A DNA stretch of 64,000 nucleotides from Candidatus Anstonellales archaeon (GTDB taxonomy: Archaea; Micrarchaeota; Micrarchaeia; Anstonellales; J096). Every line of letters starts with the position of its first letter. The stretch's first letter is position 1. Location of the stretch: the NCBI GenBank assembly GCA_038890615.1, contig JAWAFI010000001.1:368843-432842 (forward strand), given 5' to 3'. This document shows, one piece after another, positions 15,874 to 31,618 of this stretch. Both the position numbers and the translations under genes were made by a program. The notes beneath the pieces are model-generated. The model ran no database searches, had not been told where the DNA came from, and saw only the letters and a list, made by a program, of their open reading frames with translations.

Positions 15874-16211
15874 AGGCACTTGGCAAGCTGATGAACTTGA
15901 CAAAGGGTTCGCTTATTGCAAAGGAATGCTTCTTGGTTGAAACAAATTTTGAGAGGGCAAGGGGTCTTATGTTCAGCCAAAAGAAATGCTTGGTTTTCAA
16001 ATGCGATGGCTTCCTTCCAGTCCATTCGTTCTTTGTGTTCTTCCCAATAACTTTGCTCTACATAAAAAAAAGGAGGGTTGTGGAGAAGCACCTCCTAATG
16101 CCTTTTACAGCGCATTACAAGAATAGCCACCCCGCAGAATACATGATTGAAGTGCCTGGGGAATGCAACGCAAAAAAGGGCGATAGGGTTGCTTGGGTGG
16201 AAGATAGTTGA
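15870..16211 (+). CDS. DUF192-family protein
   Basis: FERARGLMF, VHSFFVFFPI, YMIEVP, KKGDRV. Confidence 0.8.
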   Translation: MKALGKLMNLTKGSLIAKECFLVETNFERARGLMFSQKKCLVFKCDGFLPVHSFFVFFPITLLYIKKRRVVEKHLLMPFTAHYKNSHPAEYMIEVPGECNAKKGDRVAWVEDS

Positions 16212-17484
16212 GCAAGGGGCTTATAGGATCCCGCTAAAGGCCTTAAGCAGTGATGAAGAGGGCCTTCTCTCAACATTCCTTTCAAATGTTTCGCTCCAAG
16301 AATCAGAGCTTTCTTCAATAAAGGCAGAGCTTGACTCATTTGCCCATTCTCAGGGAATATACCTTGACCATGGCCAGCTTGGCTACCTTTCAGAATACCT
16401 TTTCCACCATGTATTCGGCTTTGCCTTCCTAGATTTCCTGCTAAAGGACGATTCAATAGAGGAGATAAGCATACCTCAGGTAGGCAAGAACGCATATGTT
16501 TTCATAAGGAAGAAGGGATGGCAGAAGGTCAACGCAATGTTTACAACAGAAGAGGCAGTTATGGAAACAGCCAACAAGATGGCGAAGTCATGCGGAAGGC
16601 GCATAACCTACAAGAGCCCTCGGCTTGATGCAGTGCTGCCAGATGGCTCGCGCCTGCATGCCTCCTTATTCCCAATCTCAGGGGGTGAGCTGACAATAAG
16701 GAAGTTCAGGCAAAGCCCGTTCTCCCCCCACGAGCTTTTCTCCTCTTCTACCTATCCTCTTGAAGCGCTTTCATTCCTTTCCTTCGTATTCCAGTCAGAC
16801 CTTTCAATACTCATTGCAGGCAACACAGCAAGCGGTAAAACGACTTCTTTAAACTCCTTCTTCTCATATGTGCCCCTGAATGAACGGGTTGTTATTACTG
16901 AGCAAACCCCAGAGATAAACATACCCCATGAGCACGTAGTCCGCCTTGTTGCAAGCCCTGAATCAGGGGTGGGAATGAGCGACATAATATACGACACTTT
17001 CAGGATGAGGCCTGACCGCCTTATAGTAGGGGAAGCAAGGAGCGCCCAAGAAGTCAATGCCTTGTTTGATTCCCTGCTCGCAGGTCAGGCGAGGGGTTGC
17101 TATGCAACATTCCACGCAAACAGCTCATCAGAGGCTCTCAAGCGCCTCTCCCTCTTGGGAATCTCGGAGCTTGACCTTAAGGCAATAGATTTGGTTGTTG
17201 TGCAGAAAAGGATGCTCCGCTATGACCCAAAAGAGCGGAAGAATGCCGAGCTAAGGAGGATGCTTGAGATTTTTGATGTCAAGGAAGGCAAGCAGGTGTT
17301 TATGTTCAACGGAAAAGGATGGAAAGAGAGAAGCACCCTTTCTCTCAGCCGAATCTCCTCCTCGCTTGGGATAACAGCAAAGGAGCTTTCAGCCCAAAGA
17401 AAGGCAAGGGAATCTTTCATAAGGAAGCAAAGGGATTTCAGCAGCTTCGTAAGCGCCTTCCAGAAGGAATTCTATGGACTATAA
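16147..17484 (+). CDS. Type II/IV secretion / pilus assembly ATPase (TadA/CpaF/VirB11-like); true start may be TTG 16189
   Basis: LPDGSRL, LTIRKF, Walker A GNTASGKTT, RMRPDRLIVGEAR, TFHANS. Confidence 0.9.
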   Translation: MKCLGNATQKRAIGLLGWKIVEQGAYRIPLKALSSDEEGLLSTFLSNVSLQESELSSIKAELDSFAHSQGIYLDHGQLGYLSEYLFHHVFGFAFLDFLLKDDSIEEISIPQVGKNAYVFIRKKGWQKVNAMFTTEEAVMETANKMAKSCGRRITYKSPRLDAVLPDGSRLHASLFPISGGELTIRKFRQSPFSPHELFSSSTYPLEALSFLSFVFQSDLSILIAGNTASGKTTSLNSFFSYVPLNERVVITEQTPEINIPHEHVVRLVASPESGVGMSDIIYDTFRMRPDRLIVGEARSAQEVNALFDSLLAGQARGCYATFHANSSSEALKRLSLLGISELDLKAIDLVVVQKRMLRYDPKERKNAELRRMLEIFDVKEGKQVFMFNGKGWKERSTLSLSRISSSLGITAKELSAQRKARESFIRKQRDFSSFVSAFQKEFYGL

Positions 17485-18847
17485 GGCCCCTCTCTCGTTT
17501 TTGGTTTCCATAGCAATACTCTCCCTTCTGCTCCCGCTCTCGCTCTCTTTCCTTTTCTCATCCATAATAGCCCTCATCGTGCACCAATACCCTCGGATGA
17601 AGGCAAGGGAGAAAGAGGCATTAATAGAGGCAGAGCTTCCTTATTTCTTAAGGCAGCTTGGCACATTCCTTTCGCTCGGAATCACATTCGAGAGGGCTTT
17701 GTCCAAAAGCCTCACCCCTTCGCTTGCAGAAGCCCTTAAAGGGGTAGAGCAGGCAAAAAACCTCCCTCTTTTCCTTTCAGCAAAATCATCTTCTTTTGAA
17801 TCGCTCCAGATAAGGAGGGCTCTTGCGCAGGTGGTTAATGCTTACCTCCATGGCTCAGGCAAGGAGCTAATTTCGCTTGGCAACGAGATGGCGGGCTACA
17901 TGCTCTTCTCCCTAAAGGAGAGCAGCTCAAGGATAACAACAATAGGGCTCATCTATGTTGTTGCCCTTTCTGTTGTACCAACATTCCTTATCATCCTCTC
18001 ATCTGTTTCTGGCTACCTTGAGTTCTCAATAAGCCCTGAGCTCCTTTGGGTCCTTCTAATGCTTGCTGTGCCTTGCCTTGCGTTTGCAATCCTTATGCTT
18101 GCAATAGCCTCTTCCCCACCCCATCCATTCTCCCCAAAACAAGTGAATTACTACCCCCTCCTGCTTGCTCCTGTTGCGGTTGCCTTTCCTTCATTCTCCC
18201 TGCTGTGGGCAGCGATGGGGGCGTTCTACTTTTTATATGCCTTCCTGTCAGCCCAAAAAGCAGAGGATTATTCTGACCTTTCATCTGCCCTGCTTTCTGC
18301 TTCTGCGCTCAAGGGAAGGCCTGCTCAGGAAATACTAAATGCACTTAGCACCTCAAAGTTTTTTTCAGGCATAAAAGCCCACTCCTCAAAAGACATTGGG
18401 CGGGCAATAAGGGAATTCATAAGGGGCAAGGAGGAGGTTGTTGTGCGGGTGGGTGAGCTTCTTGAGGGCGCCTACACTGCTGGCTCTGACATGGCAGATG
18501 CCTGCGGCCACTCTGCATCTGACATACTCCGCTACCTTGAATACAGGAGGGAGCTCATCTCCTCCCTTGGCATGCAGAAGTACACCATCCTTCTTGGCGC
18601 CCTGCTTATCCCTCTTATTTTATACATGGCCAATTCACTTTCCTTAAACCTCGGCTCTTATTTGGGCGAGCAGTGGGGGCCAAAGGAAGAGCTTATAGGA
18701 GCTTACTTGGTTATCTACTCCTCCTTGAGCTCATTCTACATCCCTTCTGTTTCAATGGAAAAAAAGGAAGCAGCAGCCCTTTCAGCATTCCTTTTCATAG
18801 CCCCTGCTCTTTCATTCTTTCTCCTAAGCCTTTTAAAGCCATTCTGA
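17474..18847 (+). CDS. Type II secretion F / TadC-like pilus platform membrane protein
   Basis: IEAELPYFLRQL...GITFERAL, two T2SF-like repeats, many TMs, follows ATPase. Confidence 0.8.
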   Translation: MDYKAPLSFLVSIAILSLLLPLSLSFLFSSIIALIVHQYPRMKAREKEALIEAELPYFLRQLGTFLSLGITFERALSKSLTPSLAEALKGVEQAKNLPLFLSAKSSSFESLQIRRALAQVVNAYLHGSGKELISLGNEMAGYMLFSLKESSSRITTIGLIYVVALSVVPTFLIILSSVSGYLEFSISPELLWVLLMLAVPCLAFAILMLAIASSPPHPFSPKQVNYYPLLLAPVAVAFPSFSLLWAAMGAFYFLYAFLSAQKAEDYSDLSSALLSASALKGRPAQEILNALSTSKFFSGIKAHSSKDIGRAIREFIRGKEEVVVRVGELLEGAYTAGSDMADACGHSASDILRYLEYRRELISSLGMQKYTILLGALLIPLILYMANSLSLNLGSYLGEQWGPKEELIGAYLVIYSSLSSFYIPSVSMEKKEAAALSAFLFIAPALSFFLLSLLKPF

Positions 18848-19251: not shown

Positions 19252-19747
19252 TGAGAGGAAGGCAATCCATGTTGCAGCAGGAGCAGGCCTTATGTTCCTT
19301 ACTTACGTGGCCCAGCCCTACCTTCTCCCTATCCTTTTCGTCCTATTCATAGTGTTCCTTTTGGTTATGCACGAGTCAAAGGAAGGGGTTATGAAATTCC
19401 TTCTTCCAGGCCTTGCAGCCCCAACTGTAAACTATGTTGCAGGCCTTTGCATAGCCCTTCCCCTCCTTGAAATGAATGAGTTTAGGGCTGTGCTGGTTGC
19501 TCTTGCCCTTAGCGACAGCTTCGCTGCGCTTTTTGGGAAGCACCACCCAATCAAGCGGATGAGCAACGGAAAATCGCTTGGAGGGGCTTTTGCATTCTTT
19601 GCTACCTGTCTCCTTACTTTTCTCTTCCTTCCATTTCCAACCTTCCTTATTTTTGCGCTTGCGCTCTCCTTGATAGAGCTGCTTACACCACTCGATGACA
19701 ACCTAACAATCCCTGTTTCAGGGGCTATACTTCTTTACTTCCTTTAG
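19238..19747 (+). CDS. Dolichol/phytol kinase-like (CTP-dependent polyprenol kinase)
   Basis: RKAIH, LSDSFAALFG, KSLGG, DDNLTIP. Confidence 0.85.
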   Translation: MIGLNERKAIHVAAGAGLMFLTYVAQPYLLPILFVLFIVFLLVMHESKEGVMKFLLPGLAAPTVNYVAGLCIALPLLEMNEFRAVLVALALSDSFAALFGKHHPIKRMSNGKSLGGAFAFFATCLLTFLFLPFPTFLIFALALSLIELLTPLDDNLTIPVSGAILLYFL

Positions 19748-22303
19748 CCTGCCTTTGACCACTTCTTTCCCCCCAAAGCTGCCGCCGCATTGATAAACAA
19801 CTTCCTTTGCCCTAATTATCCCTTTTTCGCCAAAAGCCCCGAATTTCCCTTGCTTACCTATGAGCAAAGCCCCTTTTACCCCTTCCTTCCTCATCCTTTC
19901 AAGCAGGCGGTCTATAATTGAGTCCTCAACTATCTCCTCTACATAGTCCTTTCCCCTTGCCTTTTCCATTTCCTTTTCCACAATCGCCTCTTCAAGGCGC
20001 TCAACCTCCTTGCGGAGCTCCTTCCACTCATTAAAGAACCTTTCTGAGGTTTTTGGCAAGTCCTCCTTTGCTACCCTAAATACGCTAGCTGACTTTGAAA
20101 GATACTCCTCCTGCTCGTGCACATACTCAAGGGCTGCTTCCCCTACCTTGTAAACAATCCTTTCTACCCCGTCCTGAACCCCCTCCCTCCTCACTATCTT
20201 AAATAAGCCAAATTCCCCTATGTTGTCATGCATCTGGTGGGTTCCGCCGCATGCCTCAACATCAACCCCTTCAATGATCACTATGCGGAGCTCCTTGCCA
20301 GGCACAGCCCCTCCTTGGTATATCCCAAACCCATACTTTTGCTCCGCTATGTTCCTTGGGATTATCTCAATGCTTATCTTCCTTTCCTCCCTTATCCACT
20401 TGTTTATCATCCTTTCCATTTCCTTGAGCTCATTGTCTTCTATTCTCTTATAGTGGGTGATGTCAAGATGGGCTATATTCTCTGATTTCTTTGCGCCTGC
20501 CTGGTAGCAGTGCCTTCCCAACACAGCCCTTGCTGCTGCGTTTATGAGGTGAGCTGCAGTGTGGTGCTTTGCAATCCTCTTTCTCCTCTCTATGTCAACG
20601 CTGCACCTAACCTTCATTCCTTCCCTAAACTTTGAAGCATCCCTTACCTTATGGAATATAACTCCGTCCTTCCTGAAGACCTCAACAACCTCTTCTTCAT
20701 TAATTTTTCCCTTGTCGCACGCCTGGCCCCCGCCTTCAGGGTAGAAAGCGCTCCTGTCAAGCACAATGTAGTTTCCATCAACCCTAAGCACAATGGCTTC
20801 GAAATCCCCTTCTTTGCCATAGTAGAGAGGCTCTGTTTTCTCTACCCCTTCTGTCTTTAGGTCAAAGCCTCTTTCTGCTATATCCTCCTTTTCGCTTATG
20901 AGCGAATAGAAATTCTCAGGCACCTTTATCTCCAGCCCTTTCTTTGCTGCTTCCTCTGCAACATATTCAGGCGGTATCCCATTGCTCTTGTAGAGCTCTA
21001 CAAGCTTTTCAGTAGTTATGCTGCCCTTGGCTATCTCCTTCTCAACCTTTCTCCCTGCCTTTTCTATTGTTTCCCTATACTTCCTTTTCTCCTCCTCAAT
21101 TACCTTCCCTGTGCTTTCAACCCCTTCCTGCAGGTATGGGAACATTTCTTCCAAGAAATCAGCATGGAGCTCGCAAAGCTTTGCATAGTCCCATTCCCAG
21201 CCAAACTTCTGCTCAAACCCGAATGCCCTCCTCAATATCATGCGCAGGTTATAGCCGCCTCCTGAATTGCCTGGAAGCATGCCGTCTGTTGTTGTGAAGA
21301 GCACCGTTAGCACATGGTCTGCAGTTGCGTAAATCGCCTGAAGCATCCTTAGCTCATTCTCATCAACCCCAATCTCCTCAACTACTTTCCTTTCAAGCTC
21401 TTTTGCGCCTTTTGTTTCTTCCATGTTTATCCTTCCCAAGCGCATGGCATATTCTCCCATTCTCTTTTCATCCACATCTACACCTGCCTGAGCCTTCATA
21501 TATTCAACTGCCTTGGCCATAACGATCTCATAAGAGGTTGGGGTTCCATGAGTTATCCAGCTGAGCCTTGCCAGCCCTGCGCCCATGTCTATAACTTTTG
21601 TGTTGAGCTCCTTTCCGCTATCTTCGTACTGCATGAAAACGCAGTTCCCCAGCTCAAGCCCATCCTTAAAGTATTCAAGAGAAGGCCCGTAGTTGCCACC
21701 TCCTGCCCAAACATCCTCAACAAATGTAATGTCCTCCTGCCTTATTCCTAAGGCTCCAAGGTAGCCTATGTCGTGCTCTATTGCTTCTTCCTTCCAGTAG
21801 AAAACCCCTGTCTTTTCAGTGTTAAAGGCCAGCTGGCCCACCATAACAAAGTTGGTATAATGCCTTCCTGTAACCCCAACATTGTCCACATCAGGGAATC
21901 TTATGCACGGCTGGGGGATTATAACAGGGTTTGCTATTGGCTCAAGCTCGCCCCTAACTGTGTAGGGCTGGAAGTCGTTTATGCTTGCTATTGTGAAGTA
22001 AAGGTCATCCCTCCACCTTGCCACTGTTGGGAAGGGCTTGACATAGCCATGCCCTGTTTTTAAAAAATAGTCCTTTATGACATTCCAAGTTTCAATATAG
22101 CCAAGCTTTTTGCCAACCTTGCCTATGAAAGAGTAGCCAACGCATTCAGAGTCCCCACAGTACTCTCTTTCTTCTATGCTCCAGAAGCTCTTCCCGCAGC
22201 CTTTGCACTTCTGCCTGCTGAACCCCCTTTCCCTTAGCACACGAAGCTCATAGTGCTTCTTCCATTCATTGCTGAACTCCCTACGGAGCTTTTCCTTGTC
22301 CAT
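19718..22303 (-). CDS. alaS: Alanine--tRNA ligase (archaeal type)
   Basis: VARWRDDLYFTIASI, TGRH, DMGAGLAR, ADH, FYPEGGGQ, HHTAAH, ACGGTH. Confidence 0.97.
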   Translation of the reverse strand: MDKEKLRREFSNEWKKHYELRVLRERGFSRQKCKGCGKSFWSIEEREYCGDSECVGYSFIGKVGKKLGYIETWNVIKDYFLKTGHGYVKPFPTVARWRDDLYFTIASINDFQPYTVRGELEPIANPVIIPQPCIRFPDVDNVGVTGRHYTNFVMVGQLAFNTEKTGVFYWKEEAIEHDIGYLGALGIRQEDITFVEDVWAGGGNYGPSLEYFKDGLELGNCVFMQYEDSGKELNTKVIDMGAGLARLSWITHGTPTSYEIVMAKAVEYMKAQAGVDVDEKRMGEYAMRLGRINMEETKGAKELERKVVEEIGVDENELRMLQAIYATADHVLTVLFTTTDGMLPGNSGGGYNLRMILRRAFGFEQKFGWEWDYAKLCELHADFLEEMFPYLQEGVESTGKVIEEEKRKYRETIEKAGRKVEKEIAKGSITTEKLVELYKSNGIPPEYVAEEAAKKGLEIKVPENFYSLISEKEDIAERGFDLKTEGVEKTEPLYYGKEGDFEAIVLRVDGNYIVLDRSAFYPEGGGQACDKGKINEEEVVEVFRKDGVIFHKVRDASKFREGMKVRCSVDIERRKRIAKHHTAAHLINAAARAVLGRHCYQAGAKKSENIAHLDITHYKRIEDNELKEMERMINKWIREERKISIEIIPRNIAEQKYGFGIYQGGAVPGKELRIVIIEGVDVEACGGTHQMHDNIGEFGLFKIVRREGVQDGVERIVYKVGEAALEYVHEQEEYLSKSASVFRVAKEDLPKTSERFFNEWKELRKEVERLEEAIVEKEMEKARGKDYVEEIVEDSIIDRLLERMRKEGVKGALLIGKQGKFGAFGEKGIIRAKEVVYQCGGSFGGKEVVKGRLKEVKKYSP

Positions 22304-22313
22304 GTGCTTCTAT

Positions 22314-23999
22314 TCACGCTTTTCCTTGCTGGCTTTTTAATTCTTTTCTAAATTCATTAAGCTGGTTAAAAGCCAGTTGTTGTTGCCACGGATCCCCGAA
22401 ATTGATGAGAAGAATAAGATTGAAAAGCACTGTTGGGTCTTTCTTCTTTATTGCCTCCTGGACCTTTTCCTTTATAATTTTTTCATCATTAGTAGTAATG
22501 CCAAGCATGGAGGCAGCAACGCTTACCCTTGAATTTACAACTTCCTTGTACTCGGCAAGCTCTTTGCTGTCTATGAAGTATGACCTCTCCTTAAGCATAT
22601 TCACTGCTGAAAGATAGCCTACTGCTTTCCTTCCTTCGTCAGTAGTCGGATCCATCTCTGCAATCTGGTGCATATCTTTGGCGGTTTTTCCAATTACCTT
22701 GGGATCCCCATCTATTACATGCGACATTGCTAATGCGTAGCCTACAATCTCAGGTGGTGCATTGCTTTTAGCAAGCTTTTCAGCAATAGCCTTTGCCTTG
22801 TGCCTCTGGCCGTTTGCCATTGCCTTATGTAAGCTATCAATTTTTTTGTAAAGGCTCTTGATTCCATCCTGAGTCATTCTGCCATTTTCATCAACTTCAA
22901 ACTTATATCCTTTCCTTGGGTAGAACACCGTATACCATAATTCTGAAAGTTGATAGGTTGCGCTCTTCATTGAATTGTACACTGTCCTTGCGAGGTGAAT
23001 AGGGAGCTTTAATATGAATTCATCGGCAAATGACTTCACATAGTCCCCATTACTTAAAATTTCTCCTTTGCTCTTTTTCTCTGCTATTCTTTCCTTGTAG
23101 GTGCCATATGCGTCAAGCATTGCCATAACCCCTACTATAATCGGATCTGCAAAGCTTGCGCCTTGCTTTCCAATAGAAGCAAAACCGAGCCCAAGGGAAG
23201 CCCCTCCGCTGCCCCAATAAATAGGCCCGAGTGAAAGAGCAGGATTCTTTGAAATACTAAGCCCATAAATATCCCTCCTAAACTCAATTGCACTGTTCTT
23301 TGTTATTGCAAGACCTGCATAGGTACTACCGCTCTTCTCTGTTTGGCCTGATATCGAGGCGCTAAGAGAATGCTGTAGTTCTCCTTTGTCATTCACAACT
23401 GTTTGCACTCCTACGCCTCCATAAACAGTTTTAGTAGGCGTTAACCTTAAAATTTTCTTTGCAGCTCTTGAAAATCTAGCCCCTGCATAAAGGTGCTTTT
23501 CAGCTCCAGGTCTGTAAAACAGCTGCTCAAGCGCATTATTCATGAATTTCTTGGAGCTCATACTATCCCCGGGCTCAAGCACATATCCTTTTTCGGTTTG
23601 GGTTATCTTGTCGCCAATCATCTCAGGCCGGAGAACCCCTGTTTCAATCAGCACATGAATGCAGATATTCATTGCTCCCTTCCCTGCCTCACCGTTGAAA
23701 TAGAGCTTTCTTCCATTCTCTATCCTTGTTGCTGCTTCTTCAAGTATTTTTATAACTTCTGATATTCTTCCGCCTGTGCTACTGTCTGTGATGGCAATTA
23801 ACTCTGCGAGGCTTATTTTACTCCTATTCTTGAATGCTTTCTCAACTTCTTCCTGCACCTTGTCCAAATTAGTGTAGCCAACCCTGTCTGCGAAAAGCCT
23901 TGTTGATTCAATAGCTTGCTCCTTTGTAAGCATTATTTTGCTTGCATTTGTCCTGCCTTCAACAACCTTATCAAGATTTTGGATCTGTTTTTCTACCAT
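22314..23999 (-). CDS. Hypothetical 561-aa protein with central Gly-rich amphipathic beta/hydrophobic segment
   Basis: Long ORF with GAGGTGA RBS, 9 nt after the stop of the 1288-aa gene. Confidence 0.8.
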   Translation of the reverse strand: MVEKQIQNLDKVVEGRTNASKIMLTKEQAIESTRLFADRVGYTNLDKVQEEVEKAFKNRSKISLAELIAITDSSTGGRISEVIKILEEAATRIENGRKLYFNGEAGKGAMNICIHVLIETGVLRPEMIGDKITQTEKGYVLEPGDSMSSKKFMNNALEQLFYRPGAEKHLYAGARFSRAAKKILRLTPTKTVYGGVGVQTVVNDKGELQHSLSASISGQTEKSGSTYAGLAITKNSAIEFRRDIYGLSISKNPALSLGPIYWGSGGASLGLGFASIGKQGASFADPIIVGVMAMLDAYGTYKERIAEKKSKGEILSNGDYVKSFADEFILKLPIHLARTVYNSMKSATYQLSELWYTVFYPRKGYKFEVDENGRMTQDGIKSLYKKIDSLHKAMANGQRHKAKAIAEKLAKSNAPPEIVGYALAMSHVIDGDPKVIGKTAKDMHQIAEMDPTTDEGRKAVGYLSAVNMLKERSYFIDSKELAEYKEVVNSRVSVAASMLGITTNDEKIIKEKVQEAIKKKDPTVLFNLILLINFGDPWQQQLAFNQLNEFRKELKSQQGKA

Positions 24000-24008
24000 C
24001 TAATCACC

Positions 24009-27000
24009 TCAAAATATCCAATACCAGTAGCCTCCAATCCCTATTGCCCAGCTTTGCCCTACCTTTTCGAACTTTATGTCAAGCACTCCACTGCTGTCAG
24101 AGCCTTTTTTCATATCAACTGCCACCCCCATCACGAGCTCCTTTATAGGCCCTCCTTCGAAATTCGTCTTGCCCCCTCCAAGATAAAACCTTATGTCAGT
24201 AAGCGCAAGCTTTCCTTCATTATTTACCCGCAAGCTGTATATGCCTCCATGGAAGGTTAGGAGCTCGTCAGTTACATCCTTTGCCTGCGCATTGGCGTCA
24301 ATGAGGACCATGCCCTGTTTTGTGAACCCAACATACCATTTGAGCCCATTCTTTGTCCTTACCTCAATCCCTACCTCACCAAGAGTTATTTTTGCGTCCT
24401 TGAAATATTCTGCTATCTTTTCAGGGGTTATGCTCTGGGCCATATTTCCCTCCGTATAGCCCATCACCAGCGTGATATTTCCGCTCTTTATCCCAGCGTA
24501 GAGGCTATCCGTGCTAATTACGCCTTCAGAGCCGCTTTCCTTTATCTTTTTCACTACCACCCCTAGAACTGCGCTTGAGATAGGCACAACAACCTGCGCC
24601 TCTTGCACCTCAGTCATTTTTTCTGCTTGTGTGTACTCAAAAAGCCCCATTGATGCCGCAACACCTCCATCTATCTTTATGAAAGCGTTTACCCCATAAT
24701 TCCCCTCTTTCCCGTAAAGGGCTGCAAGCTCAAGCTTTCCAAGCCCCTTCTTGTTCACAGCATAAAGAGCGCCGTAGTAGGTTTGCGATAAAGCAAAGAG
24801 CGACAATGCTGATCTGCCTCTCTTCAAGTACCTTTCAATATTGCTCTTTATTCTGCCAAGCTCTGCGTGAAGCTTTCCCTTGTCTCCTTCTGTAGAATTT
24901 ATTTCATCCAGCTTTTCCTGGTATCTTTTCAGTTCTTCTCTTATATTCACGTTTATGTATGCCAGCTCAAGAAGGGCAAAGCTGAACTCCTGCGCATAAT
25001 TGTAGTAACTCAACTGGACAGTCTGCTTTGTATTGTTGCCTTTTCCATATGTTCCCTGGAGTATGATGCTGTCCATTCCAAGCAGCGTTTCTTTTGCAAA
25101 TGTGCCAAGTATAAGACCGTCCCATTCCTCCTCACTAAGATGACCTCCAAAAGTCCCACCCACCCCTGTTCCTTTTCCTGAATATCTCCTAAGGTTGAAT
25201 ATGCTTGCATCAACGGAAATATTGCCTTCTTTCATTCCATAGCTAGCAACATAGTAGTTGTTCTCTTCCTTGCTTTCCCCTGCGATTCCAAGCCACATGA
25301 AATCCTTTTTCCTGTCTCTGCCTACGAAATAGCCAGCCATCAACCCATAGTCTAGGCTTTTTTCCCCTCCTTTTATTACAGGTGGCCCGTATACTTCAAC
25401 ATAGCCGTATTTGTTTCCTTCGCTCATGAGCAACCCAACAGCGCTTGCGTTGTCTGCAGCAGCAGCGAATGCAGCAAAGTTGTTTGTGCTCATGCTCAAA
25501 AGGCCGCCAACTAATCTATCTTCGCTTGCCATTATTTTCATTTCAGCAGAGTTTCCTGACATCGCTATAAGCAATCTGTCAAGGCCCTCTTTAGGTGCGT
25601 CGAAATGCACCCTATACCAATAGCCAGTTTCAGTGTCATGGAAGTAGCCTCTTACACTGTATCCTTTCTCTGTTTTATCAAAGAAAAGCAGTGTGTTTCC
25701 CTTAAGCAGGCCTTCTTTGACCATTAGGTCAAGCGCTGTGTGGAGCTCTTCCTCCTCTTCACCTACAACCGCACTTACTCTGCCGTCAAATGTCCAGTTC
25801 TCCCCATTGGATATGTCATTAAGGATAGAGTCCAGCCTATATCTATGGAAGTCAGTGGTTATAGTAGTATCTAACCTCCCTATCCCTATAAAGCTCGCTG
25901 TTATTGTTCCATACCCTACGTCTCTTTCACCCCTATCATAATACCTTCCACTCAATACCCCCGTCGTTTCAAGAAACTTCGTTTTATCAAAAAATTTTGG
26001 GCGCTCCATCTCTACTATAAATTTGCTTAGCGAAGAAGAGAGAATCTTGAAAGGAAGGACAGGAACATACCTTTTTGTGCTGAGTATGCTCCTTGTTTCA
26101 GCGTCGAAAGGCATTCCGAAATTCGGCCTTTCATAAGGCCCTCGCAGTTCTTCCACTGCTTGTTCCCCTCTTGTGAGCATAGGGAACAATGCATTTGCTC
26201 CAGGATAGAGCGAAAATGCGGAGGGATAGCCTCGTTGGGAAATATAGAAGTTCCTTACCCACTGCTCAGTAGGACCTAGCAGGCGCATACTTTCATCTCT
26301 TATTTGGGCATTAGACCCATACCCATATATGGTGCTTGCTGCTGTGCTTAACCCCCTGTCTTGATACATTTCATTAATTAGAATTTTCATCATTTCCTGC
26401 AGGGAGAACGAAACTACCTCTTTCTTTCTTTCAAAATGCTCCACAACCTTGCTCTCAGCTTCCCAAGTGTAGTAGCTTATTATTTTTGACTCAGCCACCG
26501 TCACAGCATTAAGCACGTCTATGAAAACCCCCAAGTCCTCAATCTGGCCTAAAAGGTGGGGGTAAAAAGAGTTTATTAGTTCCAGCTTTGTTGAATCAAG
26601 CTTTACTGCCCCGAAGTGTTCGGCGAACAGCCTTAACCACTCAACTTCATCCATCTTTGAGTCCAGAACATATTCATAACCTTTCTTTTCCTCATTCCAT
26701 TTGCCCATAACTCCTACATAATTGCTTTCCCTTATAACTGGCACAAGATTGCTGTAGAACGAGTACTGTTGGAGCAGGTCAAGGTTTTTCAGGAGCGAAA
26801 CATGCTCTAGCTGCTTCTCCTTGTTTTCCTTGGTGAATGTGCCATACTGTGCTGCAAACCCCCCCCTCCACCCTTGGAACCCTTTATCATTTTCTATCTT
26901 TTGCAATGCTTTCAGCAATACTTCATAGGCGTCTTTGCCATCCACTCCGAACCATTTCTTTAGGCTTTCTTTTGGCCCATATTTTTTCTCAATAAGGTAG

Positions 27001-27875
27001 TTCACTCCCTCCCTTCCGTTCTTTTTTTCTATTTCTTTTAGAAGCTGTCTTAAATTAGCTACTGACTGGGCTGCATCAAAAGTTGAGGCATCTGCAGCCA
27101 TTGCACTACTAAGGTTAGCATATCCTTCATTAAGCTGCATTACCTTTTGCACAACATCCTCTTCTTCCCCTATAACCTTTGCTAATTTCTCCCTGTTCCT
27201 TCTTACAAAATCCTTAAGCCGTGCTGCTCCTTCAAGCTGAGAGGGCCATTTTCCTTCTTTGATGGCCTCAATCAGCAACTTATTTACATATTTCTTTACC
27301 TGTGGATCCTTGCTCATTTCACTGTAGAGCTTTTCTGCAACTAGTCTTCCTTGTGTATCGACATCCCCCACCCTTCCCAAGAGTGCTAGAGATTGGATGA
27401 AATATTTTAGCACCATGCTTTTCTGGCTTTCTGTAAGCTCTTTTGGGTTGAAATATTGTGTTTCCAATTCACTAGGCTCTTCTTTCTTCTTATCTTCCTT
27501 TTTCGTTTTGTCTTCTTTCTCTCTCCTTTCTTCAGGTTTAGGTTCTACCTTTTTAGGGACTTCTTCCCCCTTTTTCACTTTCTCCTCTCCTTTTGGTTGT
27601 GGTTCCTTCCCTGCCTTCCTCCTACCATAAACGATCTCCTCCATCTTCTCAACGATATGCTCTACGAGCTGTTTTTTAGTAAAATTTGGATTGTTTAGGT
27701 TTTTTATAAGGAATTCATCAATAAACTTATCTATCTTTTCCATCTTCCTTCTGCTTAGATTAAGGTATTCATTCCTTGGGTTTCTTCTGTTATATTTATC
27801 TATTGCCTCTAATCTGATTTCTATCATTTTTTTCCAATCATTGTTTGATATTTTTTCTTGAGCAGACACTGGCAT
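24009..27875 (-). CDS. Giant hypothetical protein (1288 aa): helical N-half, beta-strand-rich C-half ending GGYWYWIF
   Basis: Uninterrupted ORF, AGGTGG RBS, upstream TTTAAATAT box. Confidence 0.85.
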   Translation of the reverse strand: MPVSAQEKISNNDWKKMIEIRLEAIDKYNRRNPRNEYLNLSRRKMEKIDKFIDEFLIKNLNNPNFTKKQLVEHIVEKMEEIVYGRRKAGKEPQPKGEEKVKKGEEVPKKVEPKPEERREKEDKTKKEDKKKEEPSELETQYFNPKELTESQKSMVLKYFIQSLALLGRVGDVDTQGRLVAEKLYSEMSKDPQVKKYVNKLLIEAIKEGKWPSQLEGAARLKDFVRRNREKLAKVIGEEEDVVQKVMQLNEGYANLSSAMAADASTFDAAQSVANLRQLLKEIEKKNGREGVNYLIEKKYGPKESLKKWFGVDGKDAYEVLLKALQKIENDKGFQGWRGGFAAQYGTFTKENKEKQLEHVSLLKNLDLLQQYSFYSNLVPVIRESNYVGVMGKWNEEKKGYEYVLDSKMDEVEWLRLFAEHFGAVKLDSTKLELINSFYPHLLGQIEDLGVFIDVLNAVTVAESKIISYYTWEAESKVVEHFERKKEVVSFSLQEMMKILINEMYQDRGLSTAASTIYGYGSNAQIRDESMRLLGPTEQWVRNFYISQRGYPSAFSLYPGANALFPMLTRGEQAVEELRGPYERPNFGMPFDAETRSILSTKRYVPVLPFKILSSSLSKFIVEMERPKFFDKTKFLETTGVLSGRYYDRGERDVGYGTITASFIGIGRLDTTITTDFHRYRLDSILNDISNGENWTFDGRVSAVVGEEEEELHTALDLMVKEGLLKGNTLLFFDKTEKGYSVRGYFHDTETGYWYRVHFDAPKEGLDRLLIAMSGNSAEMKIMASEDRLVGGLLSMSTNNFAAFAAAADNASAVGLLMSEGNKYGYVEVYGPPVIKGGEKSLDYGLMAGYFVGRDRKKDFMWLGIAGESKEENNYYVASYGMKEGNISVDASIFNLRRYSGKGTGVGGTFGGHLSEEEWDGLILGTFAKETLLGMDSIILQGTYGKGNNTKQTVQLSYYNYAQEFSFALLELAYINVNIREELKRYQEKLDEINSTEGDKGKLHAELGRIKSNIERYLKRGRSALSLFALSQTYYGALYAVNKKGLGKLELAALYGKEGNYGVNAFIKIDGGVAASMGLFEYTQAEKMTEVQEAQVVVPISSAVLGVVVKKIKESGSEGVISTDSLYAGIKSGNITLVMGYTEGNMAQSITPEKIAEYFKDAKITLGEVGIEVRTKNGLKWYVGFTKQGMVLIDANAQAKDVTDELLTFHGGIYSLRVNNEGKLALTDIRFYLGGGKTNFEGGPIKELVMGVAVDMKKGSDSSGVLDIKFEKVGQSWAIGIGGYWYWIF
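27703..27861. repeat. 159-bp direct repeat copy 1 (partner 31242-31400)
   Basis: Identical except C27748 vs T31287; encodes QEKISNNDWKKMIEIRLEAIDKYNRRNPRNEYLNLSR[R/K]KMEKIDKFIDEFLI. Confidence 0.95.
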
Positions 27876-27936
27876 CTATCCACCTATAAAAATAAGGGCT
27901 GGGCATATATTTAAACCTAATCTTTCTTTCCCTATT

Positions 27937-30421: not shown

Positions 30422-31618
30422 TTACTTGTTTTGTTTTTCTCTCATCTTTTCTTCTTCAGCGGCTATTTTCCTCTGTTTCATTAGCAAGTCTATTTCGTAA
30501 GGATAAAAAACCTTAGAGATGCCCGACGTCATGAACGTTATAGCGTCTTCAAGAGGACATTTTGGGTCTTTTATACATGCCTTGGCCAACTCAATAAGCA
30601 TAAGTTCTTCTGATTCTGTGAGTTGTCCTCTATATTTTTCATTTATCTCTTTTATATTGTAAGAAAAAATAACATAGTCTCCTTGTTCTAGCATCCTTTT
30701 AAGCTTTTTCCTAAATTCCTCCAATTGATTATTTATTTCCTGAAAACCTATATCAGTATTTGCTCCTGCGAGCATTAGATCAACGATCTTTTCAACTGGG
30801 CAACCAACCACAATGCAATTATGAAGTTCTTGCCCTAATTCATTAGCTCTTTTCTCTCCAATCTCTGCTCTTCTCGTTTTATTTATCATCAATAGCATAT
30901 CTCTATCACTTGGATTAAGATTTTTTTCTTTCATCCCTCTTATTACCCTCTCCCTTAAATCCTTTTCTATCCCTATTTTCTCGATGCTTTTTGAGGCTTT
31001 TTCCATATTTGGTGGGGCAGGTTTTTTCTCTTGGACATTGCTCTTTGGTGCTTCTTCTGATGGAAGTTTTGTTGGTGGAGGAGAGGCATTAGTTTTTTCT
31101 ACCACAGTAGCATTGGCTTTAGTTCTCTGCCCATCAACTGATGTTACAGGGCTGTTATAAGTTTTCTTTACTCCAGCAATCTCTTCCATTTTTTTTACTA
31201 TGCTTTCTACGAGCTGCTCTTTACTTAGCTTGTTTATATTATTTATAAGGAATTCATCAATAAACTTATCTATCTTTTCCATCTTCTTTCTGCTTAGATT
31301 AAGGTATTCATTCCTTGGGTTTCTTCTGTTATATTTATCTATTGCCTCTAATCTGATTTCTATCATTTTTTTCCAATCATTGTTTGATATTTTTTCTTGA
31401 TGTTCTTTCGTCTCTTTTGCCCCACCACGGTTGCTATAGCTAGTGGTAGCTGATGTTCCGCAAGCAATGCTAAAAGAGAGAAACATGGCTAGAGCTGCTC
31501 CTGCTAATTTTTTTAGCAACCATTTCTTTGTTGGTTTCTCTTCTGCCAACGGCTCTAAACACTTAAACTTTGTTTTATAGGTCTCTTTTCCTTTTTCGGT
31601 AATTGTTTTGCTTTTCAT
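30422..31618 (-). CDS. Hypothetical putative lipoprotein/membrane-anchored protein sharing a module with the 1288-aa protein
   Basis: KKWLLKKLAGAALAMFLSFSIACG hydrophobic segment + Cys; Pro-rich linker; AT-rich. Confidence 0.8.
   Translation of the reverse strand: MKSKTITEKGKETYKTKFKCLEPLAEEKPTKKWLLKKLAGAALAMFLSFSIACGTSATTSYSNRGGAKETKEHQEKISNNDWKKMIEIRLEAIDKYNRRNPRNEYLNLSRKKMEKIDKFIDEFLINNINKLSKEQLVESIVKKMEEIAGVKKTYNSPVTSVDGQRTKANATVVEKTNASPPPTKLPSEEAPKSNVQEKKPAPPNMEKASKSIEKIGIEKDLRERVIRGMKEKNLNPSDRDMLLMINKTRRAEIGEKRANELGQELHNCIVVGCPVEKIVDLMLAGANTDIGFQEINNQLEEFRKKLKRMLEQGDYVIFSYNIKEINEKYRGQLTESEELMLIELAKACIKDPKCPLEDAITFMTSGISKVFYPYEIDLLMKQRKIAAEEEKMREKQNK
31242..31400. repeat. 159-bp direct repeat copy 2 (partner 27703-27861)
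   Basis: 158/159 identical by direct comparison. Confidence 0.95.

Follow-up and report, generated by a model that had tools for sequence, protein, structure and literature searches.

The gene pair and its features

Two adjacent genes, P0001 and P0002, lie on the minus strand of a stretch of 64,000 nucleotides (nt) analysed here as a whole and called the window, which comes from contig JAWAFI010000001.1 of a Candidatus Anstonellales archaeon (GCA_038890615.1). Both open reading frames (ORFs) were found as originally predicted: P0001, at 24009-27875 (-), encodes 1288 amino acids (aa) and ends in ...GGYWYWIF, and P0002, at 22314-23999 (-), encodes 561 aa. The spacer between them is 9 nt long (GGTGATTAG), and the GAGGTGA motif proposed to precede P0002 is present and overlaps the TGA stop codon of P0001. 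The pair is real, conserved and undescribed, and P0001 belongs to a lineage-restricted protein family, hereafter family A. The features of the locus are as follows.

24009..27875, minus strand: P0001 (1288 aa), ORF; member of family A, giant proteins of Micrarchaeota with a predicted barrel tail
27462..27875, minus strand: N-terminal ~138 residues of P0001, a K/E-rich head, duplicated in a 398-aa ORF
24009..25508, minus strand: C-terminal strand-rich module of P0001, residues 790-1288; next-neighbour meander of ~29 antiparallel strands, with a porin-like fold predicted from AlphaFold2 (AF2) models
24786..24995, minus strand: helical hairpin of P0001, residues ~961-1030, an insertion that separates strand 12 of the module from strand 13
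22314..23999, minus strand: P0002 (561 aa), ORF with helical ends, in the position of the partner gene ('family B')
23100..23444, minus strand: residues ~186-300 of P0002, the central block rich in Gly and aromatic residues, with SLGPIYW (from composition)
24004..24010, minus strand: GAGGTGA, which resembles a Shine-Dalgarno motif and would serve P0002; it overlaps the stop codon of P0001 (from sequence)
27906..27915, minus strand: TTTAAATATA, TATA-box-like, 31-40 nt 5' of the P0001 ATG; putative promoter, proposed from the sequence only

Concerning the sequence of P0001, the composition of its last 600 residues (Gly 10-17%, aromatics 7-14%) agrees with the Gly/aromatic-rich character attributed to it, and its last strand, rich in aromatic residues and finishing in Phe, is a β-signal-like C-terminal amphipathic strand. 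The same kind of end, an amphipathic strand closed by F or W, is found in 12 of the 19 aligned members of family A; the five g4-type members (four sequences of genus g4 plus P0005) end in IPIG, IPID or GGG. The lack of a signal peptide was also confirmed, the highest Kyte-Doolittle mean over 14 residues being 0.35 within the first ~100 residues, and a borderline window resembling a transmembrane helix occurs only near residue 1090. The claimed alternation of hydrophobic and polar residues in the C-terminal half did not hold: 24 residues lie in alternating runs of at least eight, compared to 21.2 ± 13.5 in 500 shuffles of the same region, with 208 of the 500 reaching or exceeding the observed value.

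P0002 has the central Gly-rich block described for it, weakly hydrophobic and with 15% Gly and 14% charged residues over positions 201-300; neither a window resembling a transmembrane helix nor an N-terminal hydrophobic segment was detected in this protein.

Comparison of P0001, P0002 and their neighbours with Pfam, NCBIfam and PHROGs gave nothing above threshold, and neither protein of the pair had a match by sequence in the Protein Data Bank (PDB). In particular, P0001 showed no Pfam SLH domain, no match to PF05123 and no similarity to known families of outer-membrane proteins, and a profile of its C-terminal module run against PDB sequences returned coiled-coil noise alone (E of at least 0.037). 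In the ESM Atlas, P0001 gave only feature matches below 0.9, including a porin cluster at 0.82 that is taken as a lead only, and P0002, whose own Atlas model has a predicted template modelling score (pTM) of 0.41, gave no usable match.

Predicted fold of P0001

Two AF2 models, built separately, were considered. Model 1 covers residues 151-1288 and was built from 18 sequences, with a mean predicted local distance difference test (pLDDT) of 50.1 and a pTM of 0.37; model 2 covers residues 790-1288 and was built from 19 sequences, with values of 57.4 and 0.45. In model 1, pLDDT is fair in the first helical domain (70-84), drops to unreliable values in the middle (below 45) and ranges from 50 to 79 in the tail, which is modelled as long antiparallel hairpins plus one helical hairpin. 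Model 2 consists of 12 strands, the helical hairpin, and then ~17 strands. The N-terminal half is predicted helical, as had been proposed, and both models contain one helical hairpin interrupting the strand-rich C-terminal part at residues ~961-1030 (H811-844 plus H850-880 in the numbering of model 1; H174-205 plus H211-238 in that of model 2). The strands had been described as short; the modelled ones are long, with 10-18 residues.

The models were compared with known structures by means of Foldseek against the PDB and, independently, by VIA-align against 48,161 chains, where the best Z for unmatched models is typically 7-8. With VIA-align, model 1 gave at the top SusC with Z 13.2 (root-mean-square deviation, rmsd, 3.7; 246 residues aligned), followed by maltoporin (12.9), OmpT (12.5), PopA (12.4) and CymA (12.2), while model 2 gave ScrY with Z 12.2 (rmsd 7.4; 244 aligned), maltoporin (11.9) and OpdQ (11.8). 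The 50 matches listed for model 2 were divided into 25 membrane barrels and 25 helical hairpins, the latter aligned on the insert, which matches coiled-coil hairpins with Z 9-10 and is present in all aligned members of family A. No soluble β-fold appeared among the matches listed for either model. The best non-helical structural matches of both models were bacterial or organellar membrane barrels, with VIA-align Z 11-13 and rmsd 3.7-7.5 Å.

With Foldseek, the top 23 rows for model 1 and most of the others were outer-membrane barrels (E from 3e-3 to 0.1), led by BtuB (E 3.3e-3) and OccD2 (E 3.7e-3). For model 2, BamA was the best match (E 1.8e-3) and Cir and OprD were listed too, the TM-scores of the list being 0.1-0.25. 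In this comparison, which had been suggested with the original prediction, barrels lead the list for model 1, the list for model 2 is mixed, and E values of 1e-3 or below are missing from both. The proposed barrel-like tail is upheld insofar as the ~500 C-terminal residues are modelled as an antiparallel meander whose non-helical structural neighbours are membrane β-barrels, and weakened by the low confidence of the models.

Family A and its partner genes

P0001 is homologous over its full length to 17 other proteins of 1146-2122 aa, which together with it make up the 18-sequence alignment. The homologous proteins align collinearly from residue ~150 onwards, up to the C-terminal end; for instance, BLASTP of P0001 against the protein of genus g4 gives two collinear blocks (E 1e-11 and 7e-4). 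Family A profile hits cover positions 1-1089, the conservation is low (15-19% identity across the family), and the C-terminal module measures 379-505 aa in the 18 aligned members. The predicted architecture is shared: a helical N-terminal half, a poorly modelled middle, ~12 strands, the helical hairpin and ~17 strands.

The family is sparse. A word-indexed search of 5.8 billion proteins recovered a single relative of P0001, namely P0003 (62% identity), and repeating it with the family A alignment added nothing; an alignment of P0001 plus P0003 found no relatives in metagenome contigs. A HMMER profile search of 1.84 billion representatives gave nine proteins (clusters) of 529-1989 aa at E ≤ 1e-3. 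In the phylum Micrarchaeota, profile matches were found in 15 of 401 genomes, in ORFs of 1146-2131 aa, and within the taxonomic family to which the window belongs they were restricted to its own genus and genus g4 (3/3). In full-text searches on archaeal barrels and Micrarchaeota envelopes, no description of family A or of porin-like barrels of archaea was found. Family A is an undescribed and sparse family, found here only in Micrarchaeota.

The relatives are not uniform at their N-termini. Five of the 14 examined carry Sec-type signal peptides (basic residues followed by a hydrophobic N-terminus), with an Ala-x-Ala-type site readable in three of the five. The long forms have N-terminal extensions of 200-500 aa, and one relative bears N-terminal TPR repeats. 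Two irregular loci may be mentioned (G-numbers designate genomes and L-numbers the loci of the relatives). In G011 the family A gene (L009 3720-7745) is split by one in-frame TAA into parts of 414 and 906 aa; the gene could be a pseudogene or a split one, or the sequence could contain an error. In G161 the family A gene of 1912 aa has a second giant ORF immediately upstream (L029 16334-19882, minus strand; 1182 aa, ending in ...LRLGGEF), for which BLAST gave no similarity with the rest of the ORFs examined.

Concerning the partner, P0002 relatives were absent from a set of 60 relatives, from metagenome contigs, from genome contigs and from the results of the word-indexed search. In genera g4 and g15, a family A gene without signal peptide is directly followed by a partner gene of 644-838 aa in 3/3 genomes each (G034, G040 and G336 in g15), thus in 6/6 when only the g15 genomes with DNA available upstream are counted. 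In two further genomes of g15 the upstream side is cut because the partner gene is at the start of the contig. The similarity among the partner genes of g4 and g15 is weak but significant, and they constitute family B, which is present in 10 of the 401 genomes. The long family A forms have neither a neighbouring family B gene nor a fused B-like part detectable with the family B profile.

P0002 is located directly 3' of the family A gene and on the same strand, as the family B position requires. With a family B profile of five sequences it was not significant (ninth among the 2562 ORFs of the genome; hhalign probability 0.2%), while with a profile of eight sequences it ranked 1 of 2562 (E 0.041), and hhalign aligned it to the eight sequences over 437 collinear columns (E 0.0026, probability 11.7%). 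The G258-P259 column of P0002 is invariant against five family B proteins, in an alignment that is not statistically supported. Since the position was counted together with the match to the eight-sequence profile, P0002 is regarded as probably a very divergent member of family B, although not demonstrably so. The conserved gene pair that had been anticipated was found in part: the arrangement of a family A gene followed by a partner gene recurs in two other genera, but P0002 is marginal to family B and the long family A forms have no partner.

Some observations refer to the surroundings of the family A genes in g4. Next to the family A cluster there are two T2SSF genes and one pilin-like gene (L007 1825-4282). 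The gene before family A (L007 12002-13027, minus strand; L008 1066-2205, plus strand; L009 7742-8857, minus strand) contains a weak PG_binding_1/endolysin-like stretch (Pfam E 4e-4, under the cut-off; PHROG endolysin 6e-5), which is odd for an archaeon without murein.

In the window itself, the host is, as predicted, an archaeon of a small-genome DPANN lineage, the phylum Micrarchaeota: the source genome has 846 kb in 7 contigs (94% complete), and the window codes for the archaeal markers S19e, L31e, eIF6, prefoldin and thermosome. The pair, described as a two-gene unit, is not isolated. The alaS gene (19718-22303, minus strand) begins 10 nt past the P0002 stop codon without an obvious Shine-Dalgarno motif (gap region 22301-22316), so the pair may be co-transcribed with this housekeeping gene. 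Upstream of the pair there are the thermosome gene and a 253-aa coiled-coil ORF, and an ATPase of the type IV pilus/T2SSE type plus a polytopic membrane protein are coded 3-6 kb from the pair (window 16147-18847, plus strand). A viral or mobile origin was considered and rejected on the lack of PHROG matches, the core genes on the flanks and the GC content (0.41-0.45 over 22-28 kb compared to 0.44-0.48 nearby). A scan for promoters and terminators of bacterial type stayed at the level of shuffled sequence, and Rfam identified three tRNAs and nothing else in the whole window. The remaining feature of the neighbourhood is the following.

30422..31618, minus strand: 398-aa ORF, repeating the P0001 head behind an N-terminal hydrophobic segment

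The head of P0001 and this ORF share 59% identity over residues 5-138, with 84% over 77 residues. The ORF has a Cys shortly after the hydrophobic segment, in a possible lipobox, and its region has the lowest GC content of the window (0.374).

Interpretation of the P0001 fold and its possible role

Transmembrane β-barrels are a hallmark of bacterial outer membranes and of the organelles that descend from bacteria, and to our knowledge none has been established in archaea. P0001 was compared with several known systems. The Gram-negative outer-membrane barrels compared were ScrY (1a0s), maltoporin (1mpr), OccD/OccK, MOMP (5ldt), OmpT (5oyk), BtuB, Cir and SusC (5t3r). P0001 shares with them the long antiparallel next-neighbour meander, predicted in its models, and the C-terminal strand ending in Phe. 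Unlike them, it has ~29 predicted strands, when the Gram-negative barrels usually have 16-22, and it carries a helical hairpin of ~70 residues in the middle of the putative barrel and a mostly helical N-terminal part of ~800 residues; it also lacks sequence similarity to those porins and a signal peptide, no Omp85 was found in the genome, and the host is an archaeon.

The tether porins SlpA of Deinococcus radiodurans and OmpM resemble P0001 in being giant proteins with both a coiled coil and a barrel of very large size, the latter being predicted in P0001 and having about 30 strands in SlpA. SlpA (8ae1_A) appeared at rank 29 of the Foldseek list of model 1 as a weak match (E 0.069), and was absent among the VIA-align matches listed for both models. 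P0001 differs from these proteins in having no SLH domain and in that its helical hairpin is inside the strand region instead of preceding the barrel. The gene order, with a large β-rich protein followed by a smaller partner with helical parts, is reminiscent of SlaA and SlaB of Sulfolobales. SlaA and SlaB carry signal peptides, and SlaB a transmembrane anchor, whereas P0001 and P0002 have neither, and no match to them in sequence or fold was seen. Finally, P0001 comes from the same phylum as SLP_Mh, but it differs from it in the lack of a PF05123 match and of a signal peptide, and PF05123 was not found in the genome. A report on SLP_Mh (PF05123) describes it as an abundant envelope protein of Micrarchaeota of about 100 kDa (bioRxiv 10.1101/2021.04.28.441871).

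The reading best supported by the structural comparisons, although held tentatively, is that P0001 has a porin-like barrel fold. According to it, the last ~500 residues could form a very large porin-like β-barrel, located either within an outer layer of the envelope or within another cell's membrane, a proposal that is regarded as quite possible while short of probable. The meander would close into a barrel embedded in lipid or in a surface layer, with the helical half of P0001 facing the cell, and the insertion would proceed without a BAM-type machine. P0002 would be a highly diverged partner helping to export, assemble, plug or anchor the barrel. The role of P0001 may be that of a pore, an anchor or a host-contact device.

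Several observations weigh against such a barrel. The AF2 models are of low confidence (pLDDT 50.1 and 57.4; pTM 0.37 and 0.45), the last 160 residues of model 2 being at pLDDT 25-45, and neither of them yielded a Foldseek match to the PDB at E ≤ 1e-3. The Foldseek list of model 2 also includes the ApoB100 β-belt, the teneurin YD shell, β-propellers and OspA. The strict hydrophobic/polar alternation of the C-terminal half is at chance level; the mean difference between the two faces of 21 predicted strands is just 1.17 Kyte-Doolittle units, and the predicted strands carry many charges, several strands being charged on both faces. As for export and assembly, P0001, P0002 and the g4 and g15 pairs are without signal peptide or transmembrane helix, and Omp85/BamA (PF01103) was not found in the source genome (94% complete) by a search that, in a control, detected it in 7 of 14 genomes known to have it. 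The long relatives bearing signal peptides have no partner gene, and P0002 and family B show marginal similarity on the sequence comparison (hhalign probability 11.7%). With regard to the envelope, Micrarchaeota were formerly interpreted from tomograms as two-membraned; the same report (Gfrerer et al., bioRxiv 10.1101/2021.04.28.441871), which mentions the earlier two-membrane interpretation, indicates for the cultivated Micrarchaeote A_DKE a PF05123-type S-layer rather than a second membrane.

The same data can be considered under other explanations. P0001 might be a structural protein outside any membrane, with a large open or partly closed β-sheet or cage building an S-layer-like lattice or scaffold in which the partner would act as stalk or anchor, by analogy with SlaA and SlaB of Sulfolobales. 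This appears somewhat unlikely. It would fit the signal peptides of some relatives, a family that is large and fast-evolving (15-19% identity), the charged strands with weak face asymmetry, the non-barrel meanders in the Foldseek list of model 2 and the failure to find an S-layer gene of the PF05123 type in the source genome (94% complete). However, P0001 and P0002 themselves have no signal peptides or anchors, no S-layer domain was matched in Pfam or NCBIfam, and the VIA-align matches listed include no soluble β-fold. The distribution of the two families offers no help to this explanation: in the survey of the phylum, PF05123 occurred in 17 genomes and family A in 15 of the 401, with an overlap of 1 against ~0.6 expected by chance, so that their co-distribution is uninformative. 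If, instead, the porin likeness were an artefact of the low-confidence modelling of a Gly/aromatic-rich β-region, P0001 could belong to a cytoplasmic assembly, be it a scaffold, a cage or a membrane-associated complex. This is considered rather unlikely. Against it stand the homologous cores found behind Sec-type signal peptides in 5 of 14 relatives, the agreement of two models and two aligners on the barrel class, and the terminal aromatic strand kept in 12 of 19 members; in its favour are the absence of an export signal in the pair, the low model confidence, the TPR repeats of one relative and the location of the genes among housekeeping genes (thermosome upstream, alaS 10 nt downstream).

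It is very improbable that the pair is secreted as a two-component pore former or as a host-contact device inserting into the host cell membrane. No export signal is present in P0001 or P0002, and no similarity to any pore-forming toxin family was found in Pfam or in the PDB profile search. In favour of this reading may be counted the DPANN lifestyle and the small genome, the porin-like model of P0001, the conserved partner gene and the type IV pilus-type genes located a few kb away, in the window and in g4 alike. A further argument of this kind comes from another DPANN archaeon, in which a cryo-electron tomography study describes a barrel-shaped complex of unidentified nature in the envelope where the cells contact the host; this organism, though, belongs to a different DPANN lineage (Johnson et al., PMC11329633).

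Returning to the porin-like barrel, a broader proposal may be formulated, which is considered quite unlikely: that Micrarchaeota make genuine giant barrels of porin type, evolved outside the lineage of bacterial outer-membrane proteins and assembled without BAM, whose function would be that of pores, be it within an outer layer of the envelope or within a host membrane, and that in some lineages a dedicated partner would replace the signal peptide. Within family A, P0001 and P0002 represent the variant without export signal and paired with a partner gene. If the proposal were true, family A would bear on how DPANN envelopes are built, on how material is exchanged between DPANN cells and their hosts, and on whether β-barrel membrane proteins arose more than once.

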